Shown: positions 16,882-39,904 of the stretch, in pieces
Position numbering within the stretch: position 1 is the first letter of the stretch
Layout: every line of letters begins with the position of its first letter
Source: Geofilum sp. OHC36d9
GTDB lineage: Bacteria; Bacteroidota; Bacteroidia; Bacteroidales; Marinilabiliaceae
Assembly: GCA_052400685.1 (NCBI GenBank)
Contig: JBQTGJ010000020.1
Length of the DNA: 40,000 nucleotides
Reading direction: 5' to 3' (one strand)
Made by a program: the position numbers and the translations under genes
The notes under the pieces: generated by a model
The model's database searches: none
Seen by the model: the letters and a program-made list of their open reading frames with translations, nothing else
Told to the model about the DNA's origin: nothing

Positions 16882-17491
16882 TATTATGAATTTTGCCCAT
16901 TTTAGGTATTATGTGAATAAGGAATTGTTGGTTTTTATATTCATCTTTCCCAGAATATTCCCTGATTCCTTCGGTACCACTACCAGAAATTTGAATTTCA
17001 CAATCTATCGCATTAAAGATTATACCATTTGATTTCCAAAAGCGATAAAGAGACAAAGCCCTTTCATAGCTAAGTTCGTAATTGCGTGAATAATTATCTT
17101 TCGATGCCATACCTTCAATTACAACAAGATACTTAATATCAAATTTCTCAAAATTCTGCTGATTTTTAAGCTCAGTTATTAAATTCGAAATAGAATTACC
17201 CACTTTAATTAAATATTTATAATATTTGGGGTTGATGTAAGAACTGCCACTCTGAAATTGAATTTGCTTATTTAATTTGAAGCGTTTGTATTCTGGTTGG
17301 TATTCAAAATACTCTTCTGGCAATTTTTGAACGGCAATATGTAATTCTTGAATTTTTACTAGTTGTTCCTTAATATCCTCGATGTTGTACTTTAAATACC
17401 CAATTGTAACGACAAATAGCACAAGCATCACAAAAAACAGACTTGTCATCAAATCAGAATAACTTATCCAAAAAATATTATCCTTTTTCAT
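16871..17491 (-). CDS. MotB/ZorB-like protein 2 (TM plug with conserved Asp plus OmpA-like C-domain)
   Basis: FWISYSDLMTSLFFVMLVLFVV (compare MotB [21 protein letters not shown]). C-terminal NYELSYERALSLYRFWKSNGI...ISGSGTEG is OmpA-like. TAATG overlap with the upstream gene. Confidence 0.7.
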   Translation of the reverse strand: MKKDNIFWISYSDLMTSLFFVMLVLFVVTIGYLKYNIEDIKEQLVKIQELHIAVQKLPEEYFEYQPEYKRFKLNKQIQFQSGSSYINPKYYKYLIKVGNSISNLITELKNQQNFEKFDIKYLVVIEGMASKDNYSRNYELSYERALSLYRFWKSNGIIFNAIDCEIQISGSGTEGIREYSGKDEYKNQQFLIHIIPKMGKIHNNEE

Positions 17492-18210
17492 TAATTCGAT
17501 CTATTTTGGACTTTCGGAATAATTTGAATAGAAAATCGTTTGTTATTTTCTTCTAAATTATCTCTGCATAGGCCATTAAAGCCACTACCACAAAGCATTA
17601 TTTCAGTATTGTATTTCCGCAGATCGATGTTGTTTTTGTTCCATAAATCATACACGGCTAATGCTCGCTCGAAGCTCTTTTTATAACCATATTTATTGTC
17701 AACACTATAAGATCTATCATAAGTATTTGCCATATTTCCTTCAATGACTAATAAATATGATAATTCAGGAGTTTTCATATATAGATCTTTCAGAAAATCC
17801 TCTATTTCATAGCCAATATTTATAGTAGTACTTACAAACTTTCTTTTTATAACCGACTTATTAGGTTCAAAAATTTCTTGTCCAAGTAGATCTTTAACTA
17901 GGTACTTTTTACAATTAGGAAGGTAAATAAACTTACCGCTTTCTTCTAGAGGTTTAAATTGTTCTTCAATTTTCAGTAATTTATCTTGTTGTTTTACTGT
18001 AATAATTAATTTTTCATTGGCGGTTTTAAGTTCTGTTATAAGTGTTTCTGTTTCCTGCTCTTTTTCTCTCAACTGCGTAATTAATTCTTCATTGTTAAAC
18101 ATTTGGTTTTTTAAATAACCTATTGTAACGACAAATAGCACAAGCATCACAAAAAACAGACTTGTCATCAAGTCAGAATAACTTATCCAAAAAATATTAT
18201 CCTTTTTCAT
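17491..18210 (-). CDS. MotB/ZorB-like protein 1 (TM plug, coiled-coil linker, OmpA-like C-domain)
   Basis: The N-terminal 34 aa are identical to the paralog. A coiled stretch follows (QLREKEQETETLITELKTANEKL), then KKSFERALAVYDLWNKNNI...LCGSGFNG. Confidence 0.7.
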   Translation of the reverse strand: MKKDNIFWISYSDLMTSLFFVMLVLFVVTIGYLKNQMFNNEELITQLREKEQETETLITELKTANEKLIITVKQQDKLLKIEEQFKPLEESGKFIYLPNCKKYLVKDLLGQEIFEPNKSVIKRKFVSTTINIGYEIEDFLKDLYMKTPELSYLLVIEGNMANTYDRSYSVDNKYGYKKSFERALAVYDLWNKNNIDLRKYNTEIMLCGSGFNGLCRDNLEENNKRFSIQIIPKVQNRSN

Positions 18211-18689
18211 TAATTCGACTTTAGTTCATAAATCCAGTATAAAAGAATTAGTCCAAGGTTAATTAGAATTAGTAAAAGGCCTAATAAAAAAAGGACAATT
18301 GAGGAAGGAGAAATGAAAAAGAAATAAATCAATGAAAAAATTACTAATTCGGTTATCAATTCAATTTTATTGCCAATTTGTTGTGAAAGCTGCAGGTAGC
18401 AGCAGATAGTGTACAATATAACCCATACTACAGCTATAATACTTAGTAAAATTGTACACATCTTTCCTATTACTTTTACAACAAGAGGTAATGCAACATC
18501 TGAATAAAATAATGAAAAAAGATTCGGGAGTTTAAAAAAGTCAAAGGAAGAACCACTTTCTTCAAATAAAGGATTAAAAACCGCCCCATACGTCATTAAT
18601 GAAAACCCAAGCAAAAGTATTGGGATCAAGGCAATAATTAACAAGGTTTTTTCCCAACCTTGTAATGTTTTGATAAGATTCAAACGCAT
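18210..18689 (-). CDS. Small polytopic membrane protein (about 4 TM)
   Basis: Hydrophobic segments LLIIALIPILLLGF, CTILLSIIAVVWVILYTICC, LVIFSLIYFFFI and LFLLGLLLILINLGLILLYW. Translationally coupled on both sides. Confidence 0.6.
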   Translation of the reverse strand: MRLNLIKTLQGWEKTLLIIALIPILLLGFSLMTYGAVFNPLFEESGSSFDFFKLPNLFSLFYSDVALPLVVKVIGKMCTILLSIIAVVWVILYTICCYLQLSQQIGNKIELITELVIFSLIYFFFISPSSIVLFLLGLLLILINLGLILLYWIYELKSN

Positions 18690-18690
18690 A

Positions 18691-20223
18691 TTAAAATATT
18701 TTCTTTATTACTTTAACAAGGCTAACAGAGCCATCTGACCCTTTAGAAATCACGTGTTTGGAGAAACTTCCATTTGTAGGTACTTTGCTGTTTCGTGACT
18801 GACGATTTCTTAAACCAGCCTCAATAGAACTCAATTTGTCCAACAACGATTGATTTTGCTGCATATTTTTAATGGAACTATTAATATCTTTCATCAGTTC
18901 CAAATTGTCAAGTTGGTTAAACTTTGGAATTGAATCAGAATAAGCATCTTTAAATGATTCAATATATTGAGAGGTAATATTATTCAGATTCCCTTCAATG
19001 TGTTTATAAATACTTTCCAGTTTTTCCTCGTGACTACCGGCACTTTTATACAGGTTACTGATCATTTCTTCGGTTCTGTTTTTTAAAGCATTAATAGATT
19101 CTTCAAAGTGCGATTCTACGATTCCAACAGATTTCAAGGCGGCATTTCCTGAATTTTCAATTTTATCAAAATGGGCAGAAAGAAATCTTGTTAATTGCCT
19201 TGATTCAACGAGAGTGTCATCAATACCGTTTATAACTTTATTAACATCTGATGTACGGTTGGCAAATTCCAGCAGTTGAGAAGTTATTCGCTCCATATTG
19301 GCTATGTAAGCAGAAAACTTGTTGAGAGATTCCATATTGTTTTCCAACTTCTCAAAGAGTTCTAAATTCCATTTTGAAACTTTTAGAACTTCCATATTGT
19401 CAACTTTTTCGATTACATCTTTTTGTAATTCAAGATTTTCACCTGTTTGATTCGCAGCTGTTAACACATTGTCCGAAATATTAGTTGCAACTCTCGCAAA
19501 CCTGTCTAAGCTTGCTTTTAAGCCAGAGACTCCTGTATCTTCGGCCTTTATCAACTCAGGAAGAAGCTTGGCTTGCATATAAGTTAACTGCTCATTTTTA
19601 TCTTTCTGCACAATGCGTCTGGCTTTTTTATAGGAAAAAGAAGAAAGATATGTTGTACAAGCTAACCCCGACAAACTACCGAGCATTGCAATTTTAACAC
19701 CACCGATTAAATCATTAACCCCTAAAGAAAATCCATCTCCATTTAATTCAGGCATTGAGAATAAACCGAAAATAATACCAATCATTGTTGCCGCAAGGCC
19801 TAAATAAAGAGGAAGTGTTACTGATTGCGATATCTCGTCGTCTTTAACAGCTATTTCTCTGTCAACAATATCTTTTATAATGCTAAAATTAACTGCAGCA
19901 CCATAATTATTAATGAGATAAGTATTTATTGCTTTCTTGATTTGAGAAATAACTTCATTTCTTCCTTCGGTATCAATCAAGGACAATTTTACGATGTCAT
20001 CATCTGCAATTTCAGAAAAGGATTCTTCATATTGAACATCGGTTGAATCAAAATCAACAGCCCCAATTTTTTCTTTCTCAACAAAACCAGTTCTTAGAAA
20101 TAGCTTAAATGAAAAGATGTTTTTTAATTTAGAGATATTCAAATGCACCTTGTAGGTGTGAAGTAATTGATATATAATAACTCCAACAATTATTGCTATT
20201 TCTATTTTATGCCAAAGATTCAT
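18691..20223 (-). CDS. MotA/ExbB/TolQ-family channel protein with long C-terminal helical tail (ZorA-like architecture)
   Basis: TM1 is IEIAIIVGVIIYQLL. A ~110-aa loop follows, then LPLYLGLAATMIGIIFGLFSM...GVKIAMLGSLSGLACTTYLSSF (compare ExbB/TolQ PxxGLxGTVxGIxxxF...GIxxALxxTxxGL). The remaining ~300 aa are E/K/L/N/S-rich and predicted helical. Confidence 0.6.
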   Translation of the reverse strand: MNLWHKIEIAIIVGVIIYQLLHTYKVHLNISKLKNIFSFKLFLRTGFVEKEKIGAVDFDSTDVQYEESFSEIADDDIVKLSLIDTEGRNEVISQIKKAINTYLINNYGAAVNFSIIKDIVDREIAVKDDEISQSVTLPLYLGLAATMIGIIFGLFSMPELNGDGFSLGVNDLIGGVKIAMLGSLSGLACTTYLSSFSYKKARRIVQKDKNEQLTYMQAKLLPELIKAEDTGVSGLKASLDRFARVATNISDNVLTAANQTGENLELQKDVIEKVDNMEVLKVSKWNLELFEKLENNMESLNKFSAYIANMERITSQLLEFANRTSDVNKVINGIDDTLVESRQLTRFLSAHFDKIENSGNAALKSVGIVESHFEESINALKNRTEEMISNLYKSAGSHEEKLESIYKHIEGNLNNITSQYIESFKDAYSDSIPKFNQLDNLELMKDINSSIKNMQQNQSLLDKLSSIEAGLRNRQSRNSKVPTNGSFSKHVISKGSDGSVSLVKVIKKIF

Positions 20224-20224
20224 A

Positions 20225-21601
20225 TTAGTAGAGTTTTATCTTAATTTTATTTTCAGTGTCAATCATCCAACGATCATTTAAACGAGTCACTTTGCCGCTA
20301 TGAATTAGTCCGATTTTTGTGGCAGTAGATGAATTTGTAATGTTTTCGATATCGCAAACAGGCTTTAAGTAGGATTCTAAGCGGTTAATTGCCCTTTGGT
20401 CTCTATCGCCCGACAAATAAAACAGTTCCCCTTTGGTTGAAGATTCTTTAAATTCAATCTTGAAATATTTTTTCCCATCATTTGAAATCTCACCATTTGA
20501 AATTAGAAAGCTGCCATCACTTTCGGGCATTGAAAAATAAATCTTTTTTATTTGTTTTGTTGGCTGGTCTAGAGCGCTTTCTGATAGGGCATTATATGTA
20601 TCTGCTTTACCCTCATCCTTCGAAATAAATTTTTGTTCAACCCTTTTTTTTAAATCAGCGTTTTCTTCCGAAAGTTCTTTCGTTTTCTTTTCTAAGGATG
20701 ATATTTTTTTTCGTAGATCGTCAATACCGCTACCTCTGTTGGTATTAGCTAATTGACATTCCTTTTTATACTTGCTTTTTTGTTTTTGTAAGCAAAATAC
20801 AACTCTTAAATATCCAAATAAGAATCGTTTATTATTTCCCGCTTGTGAATAATCATTGTATTTCCGTTCATCTTCTTCATTGACAATCGACTTAATCTTG
20901 TTTTTGGTAATTAAAAAAATAAAAAGCCCTCCAATCATAAGCCCTGTAATGAAAACACCTCCGTATAAAAAAATTGTATTACTAAGAATCTGATTTGTAT
21001 TTCTTTTTTGGGTTAATTTTGGTTGTAGGTCTTTTTTAGGTATTTTATCTTCGATCTTAACAGATTCCGATTTATTTTCAATTAATTTTTTTGCTTCTTG
21101 ATGAAATGCAGAAAGAGATTGATTATACTTAAGAACTATCTCCTTTGTTTTTTCGTTCCAATAGTCATGATTATTGTTGCGACCTGGAATTACAGTTACT
21201 AAATCATTACTACCTGGTTTTGTACATCTAAAAAAAGACTCATTCAAAGGTATTTTACTCTCAAAATTCTTTTTCAGAGGGACGAAAAGTTTCTTTCTGG
21301 TTCCACTCCAGTAATTCTCATTTAAGAACTTTGAAATTTGAGTGAAAGTTGGTAGTGTTTCTTTTAAATCAATATCTTGAATAAAAGCTTCGAAGTATTT
21401 GTCTTTACCAACTATTTCATTTTTTGCAGCTGATTCGCCCACAGTAGTGATATAATCTTGCATATATGCATAGGTCGCTTCAATTACACCTCTCTTAGCC
21501 CAATAATTATATGCTTCTGTTGAATCTTTGAACAGGCTTTGTGCAAATGAACCTTGCACAAAGCCTGTTAATATGATAAAAAATATTAGTCTTTTATTCA
21601 T
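20225..21601 (-). CDS. Bitopic membrane protein: signal peptide, ~190-aa exo-domain, TM, cytoplasmic coiled coil plus C-domain
   Basis: MNKRLIFFIILTGFVQGSFAQ; TM IFLYGGVFITGLMIGGLFIFLI; DDLRKKISSLEKKTKELSEENADLKKRVEQ. No recognisable enzymatic motif. Confidence 0.55.
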   Translation of the reverse strand: MNKRLIFFIILTGFVQGSFAQSLFKDSTEAYNYWAKRGVIEATYAYMQDYITTVGESAAKNEIVGKDKYFEAFIQDIDLKETLPTFTQISKFLNENYWSGTRKKLFVPLKKNFESKIPLNESFFRCTKPGSNDLVTVIPGRNNNHDYWNEKTKEIVLKYNQSLSAFHQEAKKLIENKSESVKIEDKIPKKDLQPKLTQKRNTNQILSNTIFLYGGVFITGLMIGGLFIFLITKNKIKSIVNEEDERKYNDYSQAGNNKRFLFGYLRVVFCLQKQKSKYKKECQLANTNRGSGIDDLRKKISSLEKKTKELSEENADLKKRVEQKFISKDEGKADTYNALSESALDQPTKQIKKIYFSMPESDGSFLISNGEISNDGKKYFKIEFKESSTKGELFYLSGDRDQRAINRLESYLKPVCDIENITNSSTATKIGLIHSGKVTRLNDRWMIDTENKIKIKLY

Positions 21602-24600
21602 CGTCCGTTTTCTTTTCAGCGAGTGCGTAAGACAATTTATTTAGTATTCCTATTAAAGGATAAAAGAACAAAGTTTCTTCTATTTTAGAGTCTGGCTTTT
21701 TGTAGTATGCTTGTATTCCCCTTACAAGAAAATCATTTATTCCTGATTCTCTTTCTTGTTGAAAAATTGAATAGGCATCAGTCTCTATAATGTATTTTGA
21801 CTCTATATTAATGGTTTGAATATACTCATCTAAGATTGAATAAAAATCTTTGATGGTTTCTTCAATTTGTAATTTGTGTGTGTCATTCAATTCTCCATAT
21901 TTTGGAATGTTTTGGACATCCACTTCTCTATCAAACACTTTTCCCCAGCTATCATCCTGAGTACCACCAATCCAGAATTTAATTGGTGATTCTTTTATGC
22001 TGTCGTCAAGATTAGCTTTTAATGCTCCTTTACAAGTAACTTCTTTAGGAATAGATGACAGTTTTATTTGTAGTTTTTCTCTTGATTTTTCGCTGTAAAC
22101 ACTTTCAAAAATGTATTGAAACAAATTTGAAATATTTTTCAAATTTGAGGATGCATCAATAATTGATGCTGATTTAGACGCTGTACCACTTAATAAGACA
22201 TGTTTAGGAATACCAATACCTGATTTTTTAAGCAGGTTCGCAGAATAGTAAGCGATCGCTCCATAAAACACGAATATTGAAAGTTTCAACCTATTATTCT
22301 TTTGCAGTAACCTTGTATAGCTAAATTCATTTGACTCATCTTTTTCCAGTGCAAAAAGGAAACTACTAAAATCGGAGGAGTTTTTTCTGGTGTTTAATAT
22401 ATTGTCTAAAATTCCTTTTAATTGTCCAAATTCATTTTTATCAGTGCTTTTAATCGCATCTAAAGCTGCATCTTTAAATGTCTTAACAAAGCCATTTCTA
22501 TCCGAGTTGTTCTTAAATTCATCGGAAGGATACCCATCTCCAAAAATAGCATTGCCGGCAAACTTAAAAGAAGAGATCAGTTTTGCTTTTTTATCATCTT
22601 CATCAAACACCGCAATATCAGATGAACCACCACCAATGTCAATTGATAAGCTTAAACCAGCTACAGAGGATTTGTAATATAAATAAGGAGCAATACTCTC
22701 AGGTATGCTTTTTATTCCGGTATCCGAATTTTGTTTAAACGCCCTTTGATAAACATTCTTCCAGAGTCTGGAAAACACTTCCAGTTCTCCTTCATCCATA
22801 CTTACCGGATAAAACCAGGTAATTGTTGAATTTGCAGGGCTACCACCTAATTGAAGTGTTTTGTAAAATGCAATTGTCGTTAAAAATTCTAAATACGATT
22901 CAACTTTCTTTTCATCAATTGTATTTGCATAATTGCTCCATTTTAACTGAGTGTTTAGTTCAAGGTAGTTTGGCACACTTCGTTTTTCAAGTAGCAAATA
23001 ATTATTAACCTGTCTGATAATATCTACTTTGTTATTAAAATCAACGTCTTTATTATGAACAAGGGCAGACCTTAGAGGAAACCTTAATCCGTTACCATTT
23101 GAAAACACAAATGGTAAAATTTCTTGCTCAAAAGTATTCTCATTTTCAATATACACCGGGTCAATACCACTTGCGTTTCTGTTAATTAGTGATTGCCAAA
23201 GAGGTTTAGTTGGTGTGTTGTCAAGAGAAATTGAATCATTATCTCCAAGTTTGTATTCAATATGGGTATTTGTTGTACCGAAATCAATCGCAAAATTTAC
23301 TTTGGATGTTCCTTTGGCTGTATTCATTATTGGTATAACAAACCCAGTTTTTGAGTTTACAGAAATACCAAATGCCTCAGGCTGATTTTCTACTTTAAAA
23401 TATTTACTGACTAATTCACCTCCACCTCCGGGATTTCTCGTAATTGCAGAATTAGTCAATTGTTGCTCACCATTTTTAAATGTGGTTAAACTTATTTTAT
23501 TTGATTCATCTAAACTGTAATCAAGTAAGCCGATGATATGTGTTAATTCGAAATCATTTGATTTTAAAAATGGAAAAATAGCTAAATGCACATCTAATTT
23601 CTCAATATTTTTGTCAGCTGTAGAATATTGCCTCTTAAATATAATTTCGCCCCCTTTAACCGGTATTTTAAGCTCAGCATCCACATTTCCACCAGCGCGT
23701 TCTTTTAGGCTTAAATATTGATTCGCTTTTTCTGCCTTAAAATATTTAAAAAATGTTGATGATAAAGGCAAAAGGTGTTTTTTTGAACCGCACGTAATAA
23801 ACTTTGAATCGTCAATTGGGTATGGCAATTCAATAATTTTATCTTCAAAAAAATTGCCAATTGTCAACCAATAATACGGGTCATTTTGTATCGGTAATTT
23901 TGATTTATTTGGTACATCTGTGTTTTTATAGACAATCTGTGTTTTTTCATCCCACAAGATACCTTTAGTTGTATATGTCCATTTCTTTGAAAATGGATAT
24001 TGGGGTAAAATAAGAGGCTTAACTTCATTGTACAAAAAATCAGACTTGATAACAAAATCACTTTCAGTAGAGATGCTCCCTGTATCAGTTTCCTGAACGC
24101 CAAGTTTTATATTCAACACTTCACAAATATCATTTTCATTCTCTAATACTGTGCAAGCTTTGTATTCTGTCAGATGGCTAGCTTCTATATCTGTAATTTT
24201 CCGATTTAAGTCTCCACTCAAATGTTCTTTTACCTTTTCCAGATACTCGTAAACTTCGGGGAAATAATGAGCAAATTTAGGCTGTTTAGCTAAGGTGTAA
24301 AAGTATTCAATAAAAGACGATTCTCTTTCTGACAAAGGCGCATACTCGTTATCAAAAAGTTTGTCTTGCCCTATGCGAATATCCAACTTACTTGTTACTT
24401 TTCTTACGTCAGGAGAAGCGAAAAACAAGGTGGCAGGAGAAGTGCCGCCAATAATGTTGTTCGTTTCTTTATTCAGAATAAAATACAATCTATTTGTTTT
24501 CTCAAAATTGTATAATACTTCATTACCTATTTCGTCCTCTTCTACACTATCCTGATTCCAAAATAATTGAAGCGTATCAACGTATTTTTTGTGTATTTTG

Positions 24601-24944
24601 TTACCATTCTCTTTTAACTCTTTAAATCTATCTTTAGGACTCCAGGCAATAATGCGAATTTTACTGCCGAATTTTGGAGAAGTAAAGAAAAGTTGAGCGA
24701 CATCAAGCGCATCAGACACCAATTTATGGTGGGCTGTATTGCCTTTTATTTTATTCTCTGAAACCCACTTAAACGCAGATTTTACCAAATCAATTGTTGC
24801 AAAGGGTGTCGGAATAGATGTTGCAACGTCTTTACCTTCTGTTTTTATTGTCTTCAGTTGGTCAGAAGTAATTATCCCACTTTTAAACCACCCTGTTTCT
24901 TCTGTGATACCTCCTTCGTGGAGTCTGAATATTTTTTTAGCCAT
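21594..24944 (-). CDS. Large protein (1116 aa) with actin/Hsp70-like (ASKHA) ATPase domain in its C-terminal half
   Basis: Phosphate-1 NFAIDFGTTNTHIEY (nt 23265-23285 encode DFGTTNT). Phosphate-2 LSIDIGGGSSDIAVF (nt 22617-22640). Adenosine-like HVLLSGTASKS. The ~540-aa N-terminal region has no motif I recognise. Confidence 0.65.
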   Translation of the reverse strand: MAKKIFRLHEGGITEETGWFKSGIITSDQLKTIKTEGKDVATSIPTPFATIDLVKSAFKWVSENKIKGNTAHHKLVSDALDVAQLFFTSPKFGSKIRIIAWSPKDRFKELKENGNKIHKKYVDTLQLFWNQDSVEEDEIGNEVLYNFEKTNRLYFILNKETNNIIGGTSPATLFFASPDVRKVTSKLDIRIGQDKLFDNEYAPLSERESSFIEYFYTLAKQPKFAHYFPEVYEYLEKVKEHLSGDLNRKITDIEASHLTEYKACTVLENENDICEVLNIKLGVQETDTGSISTESDFVIKSDFLYNEVKPLILPQYPFSKKWTYTTKGILWDEKTQIVYKNTDVPNKSKLPIQNDPYYWLTIGNFFEDKIIELPYPIDDSKFITCGSKKHLLPLSSTFFKYFKAEKANQYLSLKERAGGNVDAELKIPVKGGEIIFKRQYSTADKNIEKLDVHLAIFPFLKSNDFELTHIIGLLDYSLDESNKISLTTFKNGEQQLTNSAITRNPGGGGELVSKYFKVENQPEAFGISVNSKTGFVIPIMNTAKGTSKVNFAIDFGTTNTHIEYKLGDNDSISLDNTPTKPLWQSLINRNASGIDPVYIENENTFEQEILPFVFSNGNGLRFPLRSALVHNKDVDFNNKVDIIRQVNNYLLLEKRSVPNYLELNTQLKWSNYANTIDEKKVESYLEFLTTIAFYKTLQLGGSPANSTITWFYPVSMDEGELEVFSRLWKNVYQRAFKQNSDTGIKSIPESIAPYLYYKSSVAGLSLSIDIGGGSSDIAVFDEDDKKAKLISSFKFAGNAIFGDGYPSDEFKNNSDRNGFVKTFKDAALDAIKSTDKNEFGQLKGILDNILNTRKNSSDFSSFLFALEKDESNEFSYTRLLQKNNRLKLSIFVFYGAIAYYSANLLKKSGIGIPKHVLLSGTASKSASIIDASSNLKNISNLFQYIFESVYSEKSREKLQIKLSSIPKEVTCKGALKANLDDSIKESPIKFWIGGTQDDSWGKVFDREVDVQNIPKYGELNDTHKLQIEETIKDFYSILDEYIQTINIESKYIIETDAYSIFQQERESGINDFLVRGIQAYYKKPDSKIEETLFFYPLIGILNKLSYALAEKKTDDE

Positions 24945-24945
24945 T

Positions 24946-26439
24946 TTAAACTTGTTTTAAAAGGTTGTTTTTACTTAATACATTTTCAGTTGATTTACCG
25001 AAAACCTTAATAAGTGTTGTGTGTCTTTTCTCAGGAGTGGATCTAAAGCCTATTTCAGTAATCAACTTACAGTTTTCAACATCAATAGATTTAAAACTTT
25101 TATTTCCTTTTCCTTCATCACCTTTTACTAAGTTCAAAGCATCATCCCAGTTTACTTTATTATATGGACTAAAAGCGGGTTTATTATCTTCCATTTCATT
25201 TAGCCATTCAATAAAATGCTTATTAAAAGCATCAATCTGAATTTTATATTCCGAACTATTAAAATATTGTTTGTCTAAAAATGAATTCTCGGACTTTTTA
25301 ACCAGCTTAATATTGCTTTTTGTCCACCTTGAAACATTAATAGCTTTTGGCAAACCAATATTCAGGTATTCGGAGAACAGTTTATATTTGGTCAATGGTT
25401 TAGCAATATTTTTTTGATTATTTAGGTTCAAATCCCCAAAAACGATTGATTCTGTGTCATTTTCAATTCCAAACTCTTTTACCTGAGTTTCATTACTGGT
25501 CTTATCAATATTTTCACAAAAGTCAAAAATTGCTAATGCACCTGCCATTTCTAAAAAGTGAGCATTATTCTTTTGCTCCTTTCCTCCAACAGCATATTCA
25601 AAGTGTTTAGCATTTCCTCTATTTCCAATAAAATAAAGAGAATTAATTTTATTCTGCTTAATAATTGTTCTGTTGTAATAATCGATGGCAATTTTGGCCT
25701 TATCCTCAAATGAATCGGAGTTAATTTCATCTTTTTTGTTTAGTGCAAAATAAGGTAGATAGGTTATGCCTCCAATTGGCGCTTCCTTAATTTTTGCACT
25801 GTTAGGCAAATCGGAATTTCCTCTTAAATTTTTTAATAGTAAAGGGAATCCTGCCGCACCTGTACCACCAAATATTGAGTTAATAATAAAAACGGCATCA
25901 TCGTCATTAAATGTTTGTCCAAATCGTTTAAAGTCATCCGAATCGGTAAATTGGTTTAAAACAATGGCGCCCATATTGGGATTTCCTTTAAAGCCAACAT
26001 TCAAATTGGAGTTCAAATTTTTGTCAGAATATAAAAGCCTGGTAAAATTTTTATCGTCTTTTGAATTTTTGTAATCATCATCAAGTGTATTAAAACCAAT
26101 GTACTGTCCAAATGTACTTTGATCAACATCATTTAAACTGAACTGAAAATAATCTGAATTAACTACCGATGATTTATTTGCTAACTCATTAACAGTTTTT
26201 ATTTCCTGAGAAAAGAAATCATCGGGTTGGTCGACTTGGTTTCTTATTTGTTGATATAACTTTAAAATATCTTTGGTTCTGTTCAGATCACCATTGCTTG
26301 TATCAGGGTCAATAATAATTGGAATAACCGTATCAAAATCATTTTTAAATTTGCATCCAGAAGCTAATAACATTGTTAATGCCTTTAAAACTCGAGAACC
26401 TGTCCCTCCAATTCCGAATATGTATATTTTTTTTGCCAT
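24946..26439 (-). CDS. Divergent tubulin/FtsZ-superfamily GTPase-like protein
   Basis: N-terminal KKIYIFGIGGTGSRVLKAL (nt 26395-26415 encode GIGGTGS; compare FtsZ GVGGGGxNA). IIIDPDTSNGDL (compare NTD). T4-like FIINSIFGGTGAAGFPLLL (nt 25849-25872; compare GGGTGTGAAP). No T7 NxDxxD loop found by eye. Confidence 0.6.
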   Translation of the reverse strand: MAKKIYIFGIGGTGSRVLKALTMLLASGCKFKNDFDTVIPIIIDPDTSNGDLNRTKDILKLYQQIRNQVDQPDDFFSQEIKTVNELANKSSVVNSDYFQFSLNDVDQSTFGQYIGFNTLDDDYKNSKDDKNFTRLLYSDKNLNSNLNVGFKGNPNMGAIVLNQFTDSDDFKRFGQTFNDDDAVFIINSIFGGTGAAGFPLLLKNLRGNSDLPNSAKIKEAPIGGITYLPYFALNKKDEINSDSFEDKAKIAIDYYNRTIIKQNKINSLYFIGNRGNAKHFEYAVGGKEQKNNAHFLEMAGALAIFDFCENIDKTSNETQVKEFGIENDTESIVFGDLNLNNQKNIAKPLTKYKLFSEYLNIGLPKAINVSRWTKSNIKLVKKSENSFLDKQYFNSSEYKIQIDAFNKHFIEWLNEMEDNKPAFSPYNKVNWDDALNLVKGDEGKGNKSFKSIDVENCKLITEIGFRSTPEKRHTTLIKVFGKSTENVLSKNNLLKQV

Positions 26440-26449
26440 TGTGTTTTAT

Positions 26450-26899
26450 TTAAAAAGGTAAGTGAATTTGGATTTTGCTGAATTGCTTTAATATTAAGCT
26501 ATAAATAAAACCAACAACAATGCCGAGCAAACCATTGAATAAAGCATATTCAAATGGTAATGTTTTGGCAAATTCTTCATAACCTGATTCAGGATATGCT
26601 AATGCATCAATCAGATCCTGGTTGTTTGATAAGAATATTTCATTATTCGAAATACCCCAAGAAATGCCTCCAGTTAACAGGGATGCAATAATTAACCATA
26701 AAAACCAATGCCGGAATTTCCCATAAGGAGATTTCCATAAATAATAGAAAGCAGCGAACAATATTAATGGAACGAGTACAAAAGTCAAGCCTAGTAGAGT
26801 ATAGCCCCCGGAATCATATAAAGTGTTAAAAATCAACCCAAATTGAGGGTCGTACAGGTTAAACAAAGACTCATAAATAGTTGCGAAAAGGTCATTCAT
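26450..26899 (-). CDS. Small membrane protein (about 3 TM)
   Basis: Hydrophobic segments GYTLLGLTFVLVPLILFAAFYYLW, WFLWLIIASLLTGGISW and LFNGLLGIVVGFIYSLIL. Confidence 0.55.
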   Translation of the reverse strand: MNDLFATIYESLFNLYDPQFGLIFNTLYDSGGYTLLGLTFVLVPLILFAAFYYLWKSPYGKFRHWFLWLIIASLLTGGISWGISNNEIFLSNNQDLIDALAYPESGYEEFAKTLPFEYALFNGLLGIVVGFIYSLILKQFSKIQIHLPF

Positions 26900-26905
26900 A
26901 ATACT

Positions 26906-28198
26906 TTATTTAATAAGTTCAAACTTAAAGGTGACAATGTTAGATTCTTGGTTTTTATATTGATAAGCTTCACTAATTGCATTAATTAGGAACTTAAAAC
27001 CGAAAGTATGAGAGGTGTCTCCGACAATATCACTTTCATCATCACTGTTTGTTTCCACAATCCAATTTGGAATCGTGTTTTTTAAAGAAATTTCGAGTTG
27101 ACATAATGGACTTCTCTCTGTCCCAACCGTGATTAGATGAGTCGGGGTGAAGTTTAAACCAAAAAGTTTTATATCACCTATTTCAGAAACAGCTTTAATT
27201 GAGAAATTTGAATTATCACATATATAATTATCAACTGATGTGAGATAGGAATCTGAAAATGGCAACGCAGAATAATCTGTTGCTAATGTAAAATGGAAAC
27301 CTTGTCCCTTTCTATCTGATTTTACGCTAACCAATTTATTTCTATCTCTTTTGTCAAATCTAAAATCACCGACTTTGTTATGTGCAACGGCCTGATACGG
27401 AACCTCCAATTCACTGTTTTTTAAGAATCTAGCGACATCAGAAAAGCCTTTAAGGCTTTTAATATAATCATCGTTGAAATATTCATTTAACAATTCGGTT
27501 TCACCAAAAATCCAAACATAAAAAGGTCTGTCTTGCGATAATATTTTGACACCACCTGTAACAGGGAAATATTTTCCATCAAAATGAGATTTCAACTTTA
27601 TGATAATTGTTTGTAAATCACCTGTATTTAATCTTTCAATAAAACGGCTTCTTGTTTCACGTCCTTCTGTTGATAGCGCATTCATTGGCGCTTGAGGTTT
27701 ACCAATATCGTAAATAGCATCTGAAATTAGAATTGAAACAGTATCGTTTTTTGCGCGAGATAGAGCTAATTGAAACATTAAGTTGAGATTACTTTTAGTA
27801 ACGTCACCACAATTAAAACCTGTCAAATTTAATTTGTCTTTCAGGTAAGCCGGATTATTTCCAATATTTGTAATTTTTATTTTTTGCCCACCATTAACAA
27901 AATAAAATTCCCGTTTTGTATTTTCTTCCGCAAAACGAGGTTTTTCTGCTAATTCTGAAACAACGTCAACATATTCAGTAAAACCATTAACGTATCCAAA
28001 CATACTTCCTGAATTTTCTAAATAAAATACTGCTTTCTCCACATTCCTTTCCATAGAAGCGTTGGACGCATTTTTAACAAAACCTATTTGGTTTTCTGTT
28101 TGTTTTTTGGTTTCAGAATTACTTAATCTTTCACTTCTATTTTTACAGCTTGAAGTAAAAATCAAAAGAATAAGAATCAGGTAAAAGTAGAATCTCAT
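26906..28198 (-). CDS. Lipoprotein with von Willebrand A-like domain (degenerate MIDAS)
   Basis: Lipobox LLIFTSSC. AVFYLENSGSMFGY (compare DxSGS with E for D), GDVTKSNLNLMFQLAL (MIDAS Thr position), VSILISDAIYD (compare TDG). The first gene of the operon. Confidence 0.45.
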   Translation of the reverse strand: MRFYFYLILILLIFTSSCKNRSERLSNSETKKQTENQIGFVKNASNASMERNVEKAVFYLENSGSMFGYVNGFTEYVDVVSELAEKPRFAEENTKREFYFVNGGQKIKITNIGNNPAYLKDKLNLTGFNCGDVTKSNLNLMFQLALSRAKNDTVSILISDAIYDIGKPQAPMNALSTEGRETRSRFIERLNTGDLQTIIIKLKSHFDGKYFPVTGGVKILSQDRPFYVWIFGETELLNEYFNDDYIKSLKGFSDVARFLKNSELEVPYQAVAHNKVGDFRFDKRDRNKLVSVKSDRKGQGFHFTLATDYSALPFSDSYLTSVDNYICDNSNFSIKAVSEIGDIKLFGLNFTPTHLITVGTERSPLCQLEISLKNTIPNWIVETNSDDESDIVGDTSHTFGFKFLINAISEAYQYKNQESNIVTFKFELIK

Positions 28199-28849: not shown

Positions 28850-29395
28850 ATCAGTTGCGAGTTGAAATCGGGCTGATCTTGCTTTGAGGCTGGGGCCCTT
28901 TCAGGGCGATAAAACAACGGGTGATCATACCACAAGGCGATGCCCTGGGCTAACGCTACAAGGCTTTCAGCCTTGATGGGGGCTTGCAAGGAAAGGACAA
29001 CCTCTGCGTTTGCTTACTTTTAAATCGGATATCTACGGGTGGCAACTCACTTTTGCCGGACTTCACAGGCCTTGAATTTGAGCTTTATATTTTAAACACT
29101 TGGTTGATGGACAGACTCTATTTAGTGTTTGTCTATAAAGTCAACTTCTGCGTTATGCTTGTCATAAAAACAGTCATTTACGAAAAGTAAACTCCTTGAT
29201 TTTTATGACTTCACAGGCCTTGAATTTGAGCTTTATATTTTAAACACTTGGTTGATGGACAGGCTCTATTTACATGAGCGGCCTTTTCAATGCGAAATTT
29301 CTGATTCGGGATGGGATTCCAGGGCGTTGCCGTTGGGCTGAAGTTATTTGCACTTTAAGTGCGGTGAGTGGCAAAAGTATGATTTTACGAATGTA
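28850..29395 (+). repeat. Mosaic repeat cluster X+M1+M1+M2 (copy R, right flank of the AT-rich operon)
   Basis: 28888-28978 matches 1364-1455 (X). 29029-29125 and 29207-29392 match 15638-15853. M1 is tandemly duplicated (the GACTTCACAGGCCTTGAATTTGAGCTTTATATTTTAAACACTTGGTTGATGGACAG block occurs twice). Confidence 0.75.
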
Positions 29396-30395
29396 AAAAG
29401 AGTCTGCTTCTAAAGTGGAGCTTCTGCGTTGAACTGACTTTTTTGTGATATCGGATTTTATTTTCTTCAATTACAATTGTGACGGTATTACAATGGCTTG
29501 GATACGTCACCGTAAAAGCTTGCAAGTCGATCAAATGAATGTGAGCCTGCTTGTTGTGGTAGAAACCACTGCATTCAATTATTCCTAAAGGCGAATAGCG
29601 CGTTACTTTAAGCAGCGACTTAACCGTTTCGATATGAAACCAGGAACCGGCTCCTTCACCTGCCAGCCATTGTGCATTTTCAGGTATGGAGGAATGTTTT
29701 TCGGGCTGTGGTAATGTCGATTTCAAAAACTCTCTATGAGGTTTTAGAGACGGACAAACGGGTTGTATACCACTCAGGTTTTCAATAACCGTTTGATTTC
29801 CGAAGGCATGTACATTGTTCATCGGCGTTGGTGTGAGCGGGACCATGAAATTCAACCGGAAAAGCTGTTTAAAATTGAGTTTCCCTGCCCTCAACACCGA
29901 ATTTACAAAACGGGAACAGTTGCTCCCCCTGTATCGGAAAGGGCCATAAGGAATAGGACTTTTAGCCTGTAATTGCAACGCTTTGGCATAAGCCTTTTTA
30001 AAATTGATTGGGGCATACGAGGCATGTAATTTCCCTTCGCCATGGCATGCCGGGTTTTGTTGAAGTTCAATCAATATCTCGTTGAAATTCAACAGCATTT
30101 TGCCATTCGTGGATATCCATGGTAAAGTGTGTACGGTTAAATCGGGGTCGGTAATTGCCCCACGTGCCCTTCCGTGCTGAAAGGGTGAATGATACCGCCC
30201 AAAATCGAAATAAAAACATTTTTTATGTTGACTGTCGACCAATACCAGAGCGGCATGTCCGGCCTGGTAATAATTATTTTTGCTGATACCTATACCTGAA
30301 GTGATCCATTCGTACCAGCCCCCAGCCTGTTTACAGTATGTTTCGGGCCAGGCAATGGCGATGGCAAATCCTGTTTGTTTATTATTCGTGGTCAT
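29385..30395 (-). CDS. Conserved hypothetical protein (336 aa)
   Basis: Long ORF with an ATGA overlap to the NRDE gene. Its last ~15 codons and its stop lie inside the repeat, so the native C-terminus may differ. Confidence 0.65.
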   Translation of the reverse strand: MTTNNKQTGFAIAIAWPETYCKQAGGWYEWITSGIGISKNNYYQAGHAALVLVDSQHKKCFYFDFGRYHSPFQHGRARGAITDPDLTVHTLPWISTNGKMLLNFNEILIELQQNPACHGEGKLHASYAPINFKKAYAKALQLQAKSPIPYGPFRYRGSNCSRFVNSVLRAGKLNFKQLFRLNFMVPLTPTPMNNVHAFGNQTVIENLSGIQPVCPSLKPHREFLKSTLPQPEKHSSIPENAQWLAGEGAGSWFHIETVKSLLKVTRYSPLGIIECSGFYHNKQAHIHLIDLQAFTVTYPSHCNTVTIVIEENKIRYHKKVSSTQKLHFRSRLFLHS

Positions 30396-31111
30396 AGCTG
30401 AATCGTATGGTTGGTGTTTTTGATTAAATCGTAATAACTCATTTCCAACTTACTGCCTTCATGAATTATTTGCGTGGTGCTAACTGTTTTTAATTCCCCC
30501 TCGCGCATCATGATCACATTAACCGTGCTATCGTTGGTGTGTTTACCGGAATGAAACTGAAGCAAACCAGAAGCCGTGGGGTGCATTTTGCTCTCTTTCA
30601 GAAACTGATTGAACCAAACTTTGCGCTCCTTTCGGTTGGCAGCGGAATACAATGTTACCGACGACCAAATGTAAGAGTGCCTGGTGTCAAGTTGCCTATT
30701 GTGTTTGTCATTCCCATCCCAAATCAATTCGCTGAAGGAGGTCATTTCATTGCCATCAAAATCGATAGTCAACAAGGTGAATGGTTCGGTATGTGCAAGC
30801 GCTTCAGCAGTGAGAAACTGATCGGGATTTAACCCGGACCCGGCGGCATCAATTAATACTTTGCCCCTGCTGTGGGTGTGAAATGCTTGTTTGGTATGAG
30901 GTACGAAAGCGCCGTTGAGCAAACAAACCACACGTCCTTTATTGCTCATGGCAATCCACGAACCGCCGGCCACCGCATCTTTGGGATAGCAAAGAATGAC
31001 ATCGTCCCGGCGGTATTTGTGAGGGATAATGGTTTCACGAAAAGCCTTCTCGTCGCGGTTCGAGGTAAGAACAAACCCCTGGGGTTGCGGTATGTATGTT
31101 ACTGTGCACAT
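30392..31111 (-). CDS. NRDE-family protein
   Basis: MCTVTYIPQPQGFVLTSNRDEK... with the eponymous NRDE motif and an N-terminal Cys2. Confidence 0.85.
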   Translation of the reverse strand: MCTVTYIPQPQGFVLTSNRDEKAFRETIIPHKYRRDDVILCYPKDAVAGGSWIAMSNKGRVVCLLNGAFVPHTKQAFHTHSRGKVLIDAAGSGLNPDQFLTAEALAHTEPFTLLTIDFDGNEMTSFSELIWDGNDKHNRQLDTRHSYIWSSVTLYSAANRKERKVWFNQFLKESKMHPTASGLLQFHSGKHTNDSTVNVIMMREGELKTVSTTQIIHEGSKLEMSYYDLIKNTNHTIQL

Positions 31112-38265: not shown

Positions 38266-39904
38266 CTATTTTTCTTCTGGTCTAACATAATCCCAGTAAC
38301 ACCTTCCATTGAATTCAGAAGATGTAAGACACCGCAATTGTACCATTGAGGATTCACCACTATTAAAAACACCTTTAAACTCAACCCATTGGCCAACCTT
38401 GCTGTTCGCATCAAGCTCAAACCGACACGTCTTATCAAATGCACCATTGGTATCGAATATTGCTTTGCCAATGGTCCCCTTATCAACTTTTAACAATACA
38501 CTTAACTGGTAAATTGTATTTGGAGTAATCTGCACCTTTTGAATCTTCTCCTTTGGTCTTTCTGATCCTTTGTATTGCAATGAATAATAACCTTTTGCCG
38601 TATTGTCACGGCACCATGTATATGCTTTTGGAGATTTATCTACCCAAAATTTAATTTGATTTTGGGTAGCGAGCTCAAAGGATGAATTTTTGACCAGGTT
38701 ATTTATTTTTGCTTTATAAATTTTAAGTGAAGAAATTATATCGTTACAGCCTATTGCATTTAAGTCAATCCTGTCTTCCTGAAAAAGCCATGATTTCCCC
38801 TTAAAATCATCTTTTTCAAAACATTCGACCATATAACCTTCCGGCATTTGAATGGAGGATATTGCTTTAGGCGTAATACCACGTTTCAGCATTTCAGCCT
38901 GATTATATTCACCAACGGGTAAAGTTCCGAACATTTCATTAAAGTTAATGTCGTTATGAAAAGTTGGGAGTTTTACACCCAACGTCTGTTTTACCATTTG
39001 AATAGTACCGTCTTCATTAAAATAAACAGGGTCGAAGCAAATGGACCGTTGTGGCGCAATTCCTCCCGAAAGATTCCCGTTGTGATAAAAAATATACCAC
39101 TGGTCATTATATTCAACTATTGAACCATGCATGGTAATCACATCGGTATGCTCAAGAATCAGACCTTTGGGCTCCCATGGTCCTAATGGACTGTCACTCA
39201 TTGAATACTGCATTTGGTTGTAAGGCCGATGATGATCCGGGTAGATCATATAATATTTGCCTTTACGCTTGAACACAAACGGACCTTCGCGATGTTCGTC
39301 GACTCCGGTCTGATGAACCATTTCCCCTTCAATTTCCATCATATTATCTTTAAGTTTAGCGGCATAACACTTAGCATGCACAACCGCATAAAGATAAGCT
39401 TGTCCGTCATCGTCAATGAAAACAGATGGATCGCAAAAGGTCTCCCCCCCCTTTCACATATCCCTGTACTTTAAAATCAGAAGCAGGCATTTTGCTGGTT
39501 GCCACACCTATCTCCCAAACCATATCTGCATTTTTATGAGGGAAATAAAAAAAATAGATTCCATCGTTATAGACACAATCTGGGGCCCACATATAACCTC
39601 CTTTTTTGGTTCCCCAAGGAATATCCCTCGAATGAAGAATTTCGCCATGATCTTTCCAGGTCATCATGTCATTGGTTGAGAATACATGGTAGCCATCCAT
39701 TTTGGCATATCCCTTTGCGGGCGCAACATCAGTGGAAGGATAAACATACAAACGCCCGTCTTTCCAAACATGCGCCGATGCATCGGCTGTAAACATGTGA
39801 CTTACAACAGGGTTTGAACGACGATTTTGGGCGATAGAGAATATTCCAAATGCAAAAAATAAAATCAGTGAAAAGATTAAAAAATTATTGGTTTGGTTTT
39901 TCAT
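38266..39904 (-). pseudogene. Glycoside hydrolase family 43 with C-terminal CBM-like domain, reading frame broken in a G8 tract
   Basis: N-terminal ORF (39413-39904) has a signal peptide and WAPDCVY...GVATS. C-terminal ORF (38266-39381) has REGPFVFKRKGKYYMIY and ...NSSFE...W (CBM4_9-like). Reading through with 7 rather than 8 G restores ...YVKGGETFCDPSVFIDDDGQAYLYAVVHAK... Confidence 0.8.

Follow-up and report, generated by a model that had tools for sequence, protein, structure and literature searches.

Among described membrane motors, the closest relatives of the gene analyzed here are found in Zorya, an ion-driven anti-phage motor with ZorA as its long-tailed membrane subunit, where residues T147 and S184 of ZorA form an ion-selectivity filter contacting Asp26 of ZorB, and a double mutant abolishes defence (PMC11946911). 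The cytoplasmic domain of ZorA has also been described to contain a beta-hairpin (PMC11946911), and beta structure in this domain separates Zorya-type proteins from other MotA homologues (PMC12505986). A second group of related loci is centred on the tubulin homologue FtsZl1. In Deinococcus radiodurans and D. deserti, the gene for FtsZl1 (DR_0538, 1070 residues) is followed by genes for a 411-residue 'MotA/TolQ/ExbB' protein and an OmpA-family protein (PMC2875224, Additional file 5), an adjacency that was listed in 2010 without discussion or analysis (PMC2875224). In the literature searched, no paper ties Zorya or ZorA to tubulin-like proteins or to FtsZl1. Here, a 40,000-nucleotide stretch of contig JBQTGJ010000020.1 (assembly GCA_052400685.1) from Geofilum sp. 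OHC36d9, a member of the Bacteroidota, was analyzed (hereafter the window), with the focus on a gene at 18691..20223 of the minus strand. Its 510-residue product, identical to the NCBI hypothetical protein ACT3CD_14805, had been described in an initial annotation of the window as ZorA-like, with a MotA/ExbB-type channel core and a helical tail of ~300 residues. This gene very probably encodes the pentameric A subunit of a ZorAB-type 5:2 membrane motor driven by the proton motive force (PMF). It belongs to a ten-gene operon that also encodes tubulin-like and actin-fold nucleoside triphosphatases (NTPases). A ZorAB-type motor with this set of partners is new, the 2010 supplementary table being the sole precedent found. 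The reading favoured overall, which we consider probable, is a new Zorya-like variant in which the tail of an envelope-anchored proton motor is coupled to the cytoskeletal NTPases.

Relationship of the 510-residue protein to ZorA

The gene is an open reading frame (ORF) running from ATG to stop. A profile search with its product retrieved 1068 clusters (50% identity) at E ≤ 1e-3, 571 of them at E ≤ 1e-30, so a chance ORF was dismissed: 18691-20223 is a real gene. Hydropathy analysis (Kyte-Doolittle) located three transmembrane (TM) segments in the protein, at residues ~5–23, 135–157 and 170–195, in accord with the single N-terminal TM segment, loop of about 110 residues and pair of TM segments that the initial annotation had read from the sequence. 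TM1 (20155..20211, minus strand) lies inside a helix spanning residues 2–34 in an AlphaFold2 (AF2) model, and is followed by a cytoplasmic, membrane-proximal domain (residues ~24–134; 19822..20154, minus strand) that in the model contains a beta-hairpin (41–49/77–85) and helices at 90–105 and 113–135. Residues N100 and Y102 of this domain are invariant among 62 diverse family members. TM2 (19753..19821, minus strand) carries the motif P138-L-Y-L-G142-L-A-A-T146-M-I-G149-I, and TM3 (19639..19716, minus strand) reads G175-xxx-A179-xxx-S183-xx-G186-L187, with T190 further along the segment. The MotA_ExbB-type motifs that had been noted are thus present in both segments, with the trailing 'GIxxxF' element of the proposed pattern off by one residue.

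The AF2 monomer model was built on a 30-sequence alignment. Its predicted local confidence (pLDDT) is mostly 70–88 over residues 1–225 and falls to ~50–56 in the loop 50–80; over the cytoplasmic domain as a block it is ~50–87, with the minimum in that loop. When the model was compared with the PDB using Foldseek, four E. coli ZorA chains led the matches (E 3.9e-4 to 1.5e-3, probability 1.00). The first 37 matches were all ZorA (including Shewanella ZorA), TolQ or ExbB, and MotA and PomA appeared at ranks 40 and 44. Sequence searches of the PDB by phmmer and with full-length profiles from two alignments (A1 and A2) returned a flood of coiled-coil proteins, among them apolipoproteins, designed bundles and IpaD; these matches were rejected, and ZorA emerged only at E 0.012. 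Trimming to residues 86–232 removed this swamping by the coiled coil and allowed ZorA to be resolved. The resulting core profile (A3) represents 26 diverse members. Among all 177,635 PDB sequences it retrieved ZorA at E 2.6e-4, 6.6e-4 and 2.2e-3 (EcZorA), in a range extending to 2e-2, as well as TolQ at 6e-3 and ExbB at ~2; no other protein ranked above these three.

Alignment by hidden Markov model (HMM) placed T146 on EcZorA T147 and S183 on EcZorA S184. Each of these two residues is conserved in at least 90% of 62 family members that are 22–57% identical to the 510-residue protein. Family members carry neither a name nor a Pfam domain, yet 17 of the 62 still match MotA_ExbB when scanned (best E 1.9e-5), and individual ZorA1, ZorA2 or ZorA3 models are matched by up to 14 of them (best E 1.9e-14). 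Relatives located in verified cassettes match the ZorA models weakly (5e-7 to 1e-3), partly in the tail. Searching with MotA_ExbB and ZorA HMMs, the check suggested at the outset, therefore gave a divided outcome: the single sequence is without a match, which on a literal reading is the refuting condition set there, and its fold, core profile and relatives match ZorA. Combined, these sequence and model comparisons identify the 510-residue protein as a predicted, divergent ZorA-like A subunit that falls outside the curated ZorA families.

The helical tail

In the AF2 model, the TM3 helix (165–230) continues straight into a tail (residues ~196–475; 18799..19638, minus strand) that is modelled as all-helical, with further helices at 232–275, 278–324, 327–365, 370–431 and 441–475. 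Confidence in the tail is low (pLDDT 43–70), which is to be expected when one chain of an oligomeric bundle is modelled by itself. The residues S, L, N, K and E are abundant between positions 205 and 510, where just 3 prolines occur. Family-averaged hydrophobicity showed a period of 3.65 residues over positions 205–475 and a heptad-like period of 3.45 over 278–365, both above all 300 shuffles. The latter segment spans most of residues 265–304, the example from which heptad-like repeats had originally been proposed. AF2 helices and coiled-coil-type periodicity both speak against a disordered or non-helical tail, although the helical stretch, initially thought uninterrupted, extends to residue 475 and residues 476–501 are predicted to be non-helical. 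The tail is conserved, and its length co-varies within the family. That a long tail marks ZorA and is lacking in MotA, ExbB and TolQ accords with the published description (PMC11946911).

The last part of the protein (18694..18798, minus strand), delimited from the AF2 model and alignment A1, comprises a low-confidence linker and a terminal motif, ...VIKKIF. The pLDDT is below 50 for residues 474–500, and a short helix is predicted at 502–509. Across relatives, residues 476–510 begin as a variable linker and end in a short amphipathic motif with the consensus ...VxKKLF, in which F510 is kept in at least 90% of the sequences in A1. Such an ending is similar to the docking peptides that cytoskeletal proteins have at their C-termini.

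ZorB-like partners

Two ZorB/MotB-like proteins are encoded in the same operon. The type 1 protein (239 residues; 17491..18210, minus strand) matches the PADLOC model ZorB1 at E 1.8e-12. The type 2 protein (206 residues; 16871..17491, minus strand) matches it at 1.5e-16 and has an OmpA-like domain (Pfam OmpA, 1.8e-5). ZorB1 is the best match for both proteins, and their OmpA and MotB_plug matches are weaker. In the PDB, the best genuine relative is EcZorB (chain 8qyd_F, E 8.9e-4), followed by two more ZorB-type chains from ZorAB structures; MotB, ExbD and TolR are absent from the PDB matches of the ZorB-like protein. Matches to pentatricopeptide repeat proteins were rejected as sums of sub-significant repeats. 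Asp13, within the motif Y/F-S/T/A-D-L-M, is invariant in the 43 of 43 orthologues for which the N-terminus is available.

The 5' ends of the two B genes are alike at 88 of the first 90 nucleotides and their first 34 residues are identical, and after about nucleotide 100 the DNA is unrelated. The 42 other loci that carry a ZorB-like gene each hold exactly one, of type 1 or type 2. As only the window holds both types, the tandem pair suggests either an intermediate of recombination or cassette swapping, or a heterodimeric B subunit.

Operon organization and conservation

The ten genes form a minus-strand operon running from 28198 down to 16105, with intergenic gaps of -11 to +10 nucleotides and the ZorA-like gene in sixth position. 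The G+C content of the operon is 31.9%, versus 39–45% in both flanks, which indicates that it was acquired horizontally. Its core order (lipoprotein, small TM protein, tubulin-like protein, actin-fold protein of about 1100 residues, bitopic protein, ZorA-like protein, ZorB-like protein) is kept wherever the contig reaches among 43 related loci, mostly from Bacteroidota, and the same order is found in five members that are only 24–32% identical to the 510-residue protein. Synteny thus shows that the functional unit is the ten-gene operon with its ZorAB-type membrane module. The locus search was based on alignment A1, the too-diverse A2 being set aside, and its strict peptide patterns picked out 40 loci among 185,579 species genomes. 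These 40 loci are confined to closer relatives and, because the patterns are strict, under-sample the family. No homologue of the 510-residue protein was found in the phage collection.

The tubulin/FtsZ-like GTPase (497 residues; 24946..26439, minus strand) matches Pfam Tubulin at a sub-threshold E of 1.1e-5, and all 13 sequences tested, this protein and 12 orthologues, match that family. Pfam Tubulin_2 is matched by 7 of the 13 (best 2.6e-6), in the case of the 497-residue protein at E 7e-4 and over residues 9–50 only, all of these matches lying below the Pfam thresholds. The T4-type motif GGTGAAG of the 497-residue protein aligns to CetZ.

The adjacent gene (21594..24944, minus strand) encodes a protein of 1116 residues that combines a conserved N-terminal half with a C-terminal actin-fold (MreB/Hsp70-like) ATPase, as judged from an AF2 model (pLDDT 79.9) and Foldseek. 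The C-terminal half matches MreB, the DnaK nucleotide-binding domain, BeeR, actin and ParM at E 3e-9 and below, and the protein has 520 Foldseek matches at E ≤ 1e-3. The motifs DFGTTNT and DIGGGSSD are invariant in the family. These matches, together with Pfam Tubulin hits in 12 of 12 orthologues of the 497-residue protein, bear out the presence of tubulin- and actin-like neighbours that the initial annotation had recognized. Tubulin-like and ~1100-residue actin-fold proteins are fused into single chains of about 1555–1660 residues in several independent clusters (for example L027:3185-7870, P0316, P0319, P0367, P0383 and P0387). These Rosetta-stone fusions suggest that both proteins act as one unit. 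Residues 1–46 of the 1116-residue protein (24807-24944, minus strand) rank with its best-conserved parts and have many invariant positions, yet their AF2 pLDDT is below 50; they may be an interaction peptide that folds only on its partner.

Four further membrane or lipoprotein genes complete this part of the operon. The first operon gene encodes a 430-residue lipoprotein (26906..28198, minus strand) with an invariant Cys18, present in 32 of 43 loci. It received no assignment from Pfam (13 orthologues) or from a profile search of the PDB, and a von Willebrand factor A (vWA) identity, raised by its MIDAS-like ENSGS and SDG motifs, was rejected for want of support from these same searches. A 149-residue membrane protein (ORF 26450..26899, minus strand) is found in 31 of 43 loci and is missing only at cut contigs. 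The 458-residue bitopic protein (20225..21601, minus strand), present in 40 of 43 loci, consists of a signal peptide, a variable periplasmic part, a TM segment, a coiled coil and a conserved C-terminal domain. A multi-pass membrane protein of 159 residues (ORF 18210..18689, minus strand), present in 8 of 43 loci, is a clade-specific accessory without a family match in Pfam, PADLOC or NCBIfam.

The variable 3' end and mobility of the cassette

The last gene of the operon (16105..16881, minus strand) encodes a trypsin/HtrA-like serine protease of 258 residues with a lipoprotein signal (Pfam Trypsin_2, E 1.5e-24). In about 25 of 46 loci, the 3' end carries genes for lipoprotein trypsin-like or retropepsin-like proteases and/or SNase, fused or adjacent to one another, and among these 3' module enzymes the cassette of the window carries only the trypsin-like protease. 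Since many cassettes carry such a protease or SNase, the cytoskeletal proteins may be transducers rather than effectors. The 3' lipoprotein enzymes are interchangeable (for example L044:12804-13997, L045:13963-16115, L046:12411-13445 and L001:12750-13280) and have similar leaders after the lipobox cysteine (for example SGCSGCSPSGRR, ACTGSSPSGRR and SCNSCSPSGR), which may serve all of them as a signal for docking or sorting. The interval between the protease gene and the nearby IS21 element (15130-16105) holds no SNase remnant, only an IstB-like fragment.

On a Sunxiuqinia chromosome, the cassette stands between an integrase gene and HTH_17/DUF3876/DUF5712 genes, and genes for Type ISP restriction and HipA lie close to further copies. 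A plasmid of Parabacteroides distasonis (NZ_OY725823.1; locus L047, 9770-13892) encodes a more distant ZorA-like protein of 498 residues (29% identity, E 1e-22) that matches PADLOC ZorA1 at 1.4e-7 and is followed by a ZorB-like protein (198 residues, ZorB1 3.9e-10). This pair comes directly after genes for a 419-residue DarT-domain (DUF4433) protein and a 222-residue protein with weak similarity to SduA. An integrase and a PDC-S02 PDDEXK nuclease are encoded in the same island, and the pair may be another undescribed Zorya-like variant. Its position with DarT and PDC-S02 indicates that ZorAB-like pairs close to this one in sequence join different cargo, as Zorya does.

In the window, the downstream flank contains the IstB-like fragment (15363-15500), a complete IS21 (istA 12805-14373, istB 14404-15129) and, further on, a group II intron reverse transcriptase/maturase (10402-11652). 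Directly upstream of the operon (29385-31111, minus strand) are genes for a TseH-like (type VI effector-like) and DUF6695 protein and for a TANGO2-family protein, neither of which is kept beside the cassette in other genomes. At 38266-39381 and 39413-39904 (minus strand), two adjacent ORFs match parts 147–288 (C-terminal) and 3–114 (N-terminal) of Pfam Glyco_hydro_43, as if a frameshift or stop had divided a single GH43 gene.

Proposed mechanism and alternative roles

By the proposed mechanism, TM2 and TM3 of the 510-residue protein would surround a dimer formed by the ZorB-like protein or proteins, encoded two and three genes downstream, which would supply the channel residue Asp13 and an OmpA-like peptidoglycan-binding domain. 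Five tails, each of ~280 helical residues, would bundle and reach up to ~40 nm into the cytoplasm. By analogy with Zorya, envelope disturbance would release or activate the motor, and the cytoskeletal NTPases would read the tail as it rotates or changes conformation, perhaps via the C-terminal ...VIKKIF motif, a speculative route. The output would be local filament assembly and membrane remodelling, or else control of the 3' lipoprotein protease or nuclease. That the tail relays envelope perturbation to the tubulin- and actin-like proteins, as first supposed in the initial annotation, is plausible, a functional link between them being suggested by the strict synteny. A defence role of the operon is inferred, with the integrase, Type ISP and HipA genes near other copies, the IS21 and group II intron beside the cassette of the window, the DarT-linked pair on the Parabacteroides plasmid and the variable 3' modules as hints. 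Mechanism and role taken together, with conflict or anti-phage defence as the most likely role, are put forward tentatively, as a proposal for which the prospects are nearly balanced. More specifically, the cassette could be a fourth, cytoskeleton-coupled Zorya-like machine, in which a peptidoglycan-anchored, proton-driven rotary motor would signal through its pentameric tail directly to tubulin-like and actin-fold NTPases and, on envelope breach, trigger assembly of filaments or membrane remodelling and/or release of the lipoprotein protease and nuclease; this is possible, though rather doubtful.

Several observations weigh against interpreting the locus as a Zorya-like variant. The 510-residue protein matches neither Pfam MotA_ExbB (PF01618) at E ≤ 0.1 nor PADLOC ZorA1/2/3 and NCBIfam up to E 1, and its full-length profile retrieved no stator from the PDB. 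The Foldseek E-values are modest (~1e-4) and the predicted TM-score (pTM) is 0.37; structural TM-scores are low as well, because the tail of the monomer is placed arbitrarily in the model. Some ZorA-HMM matches of relatives are confined to the tail, where the composition of helical repeats could account for them. The 5:2 stoichiometry, the pentameric tail, PMF dependence and peptidoglycan binding are all drawn solely from homology. A PADLOC scan of the ten operon proteins detected no ZorC, ZorD, ZorE, ZorF or ZorG and no other system, the only matches being to ZorB models and, for the protease, to an RT-protease domain; in the absence of ZorC/D/E/F/G, the operon is not Zorya of type I–III. Moreover, the 3' proteases and nucleases bear lipoprotein signals and would act outside the cytoplasm, unlike Zorya effectors, and the upstream neighbours of the cassette in Geofilum are genes of housekeeping type.

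The same motor could instead serve a housekeeping machine for membrane remodelling or envelope maintenance, providing PMF energy and a peptidoglycan anchor for filaments that shape or repair the membrane. Makarova and Koonin put forward such a machine in 2010 as the 'FtsZl1-centred membrane remodelling system' (PMC2875224), and several features are in line with it: Tubulin_2, the Pfam family of FtsZl1, is matched by the 7 of 13 tubulin-like orthologues mentioned above, FtsZl1 stands beside 'MotA/TolQ/ExbB' and OmpA genes in Deinococcus (PMC2875224, Additional file 5), most components of the operon are membrane-associated, and its core is without a known defence effector in PADLOC. A housekeeping function is nevertheless unlikely. 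The cassette is sporadic and mobile (40 loci in 185,579 species genomes with the strict patterns), its G+C content is low relative to the host, an integrase and insertion sequence elements lie alongside, the 3' protease and nuclease genes are interchangeable, and both motor subunits are closest to Zorya proteins rather than to Tol/Exb.

It is very improbable that the protein is an ExbB/TolQ-type energiser of an outer-membrane process, acting in a TonB- or TolA-like manner, with the C-terminal extension as an unrelated add-on. TolQ and ExbB do give strong Foldseek matches (ranks 5–37), the core profile retrieves TolQ at E 6e-3, and the three-TM topology is of the same type, but ZorA ranks above both in fold and profile searches, and the partner, with its single N-terminal TM segment and OmpA-like domain, matches ZorB and not ExbD or TolR. 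In addition, the cassette has no TonB- or TolA-like gene, and an unrelated add-on is at odds with the conservation of the tail and the co-variation of its length in the family.

GldL of the gliding machinery is a protein of two TM helices whose partner is GldM rather than an OmpA-type protein. A stator for surface movement in Bacteroidota, analogous to flagellar MotA/PomA or to gliding GldL/AglR, can scarcely be credited, for the weaker Foldseek matches to MotA and PomA and a weak GldL match (E 0.063, in the tail region of profile A2) are set against the confinement of that GldL match to the coiled-coil tail, for which it was rejected as compositional, the low-G+C island with its 40 loci in 185,579 species genomes, and the lack of flagellar or gld genes nearby.

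Comparison with known systems

MotA/PomA and GldL share with the 510-residue protein membership of the same motor superfamily, as reflected in weak fold matches. There are four TM helices in MotA, which also has a cytoplasmic domain that binds the rotor, and two in GldL; the tail and the gene context described here are absent from both. TolQ and ExbB (PDB 8ODT, 5SV0) are nearer, with the three-TM fold of the 5:2 motor superfamily and the glycine–threonine pattern of TM2 and TM3. By contrast to the present protein, they are without a long tail, have TolR/ExbD and TolA/TonB as partners, and are encoded in chromosomal housekeeping operons.

The FtsZl1 operons (PMC2875224) resemble this cassette in encoding a divergent tubulin/FtsZ-like GTPase with OmpA-like and membrane proteins. 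Their hallmark vWA protein, P-loop GTPase and kinases could not be demonstrated here and, conversely, a ZorA-type tail, an actin-fold ATPase and protease/SNase modules were not described there (PMC2875224). The comparison offers a testable hypothesis for divergent tubulin homologues that have been without a function since their description in 2010. If the cytoskeleton-coupled reading is true, it would provide a function for the long-orphaned FtsZl1-type homologues, and the motor would be the first ion-driven rotary motor tied to prokaryotic cytoskeletal NTPases. Should the cassette be a defence system, no earlier one would have had tubulin- and actin-like NTPases at its core, and the modularity of ZorAB would reach beyond nuclease effectors. 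The 510-residue protein also defines a family of about 1000 clusters (50% identity) whose present annotation does not go beyond 'hypothetical protein' and which Pfam, NCBIfam and PADLOC fail to reveal.

The closest likeness is to ZorA (E. coli type I, PDB 8QYD; Shewanella, 8VVN), the best match in both fold and profile. Shared traits are the three-TM topology, the cytoplasmic domain with a beta-hairpin, a Thr in TM2 and a Ser in TM3 at the filter positions, a TM3 continuous with a long helical tail, and a ZorB-like partner bearing an OmpA domain and the Asp residue. Identity to ZorA is ~15%, and the 510-residue protein fails every curated ZorA HMM. Its partners are tubulin-like, actin-fold, lipoprotein and bitopic proteins, in place of the ZorC/D, ZorE or ZorF/G of Zorya types I, II and III, respectively; a 159-residue protein is encoded between the ZorA-like and ZorB-like genes, and the ZorB-like protein is present as two paralogues. 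Finally, its tail has ~280 helical residues versus ~500 in EcZorA (~40 versus 70 nm if extended), and a shorter-tailed natural variant with different partners provides a comparative handle on how the ZorA tail signals to the cytoplasm.

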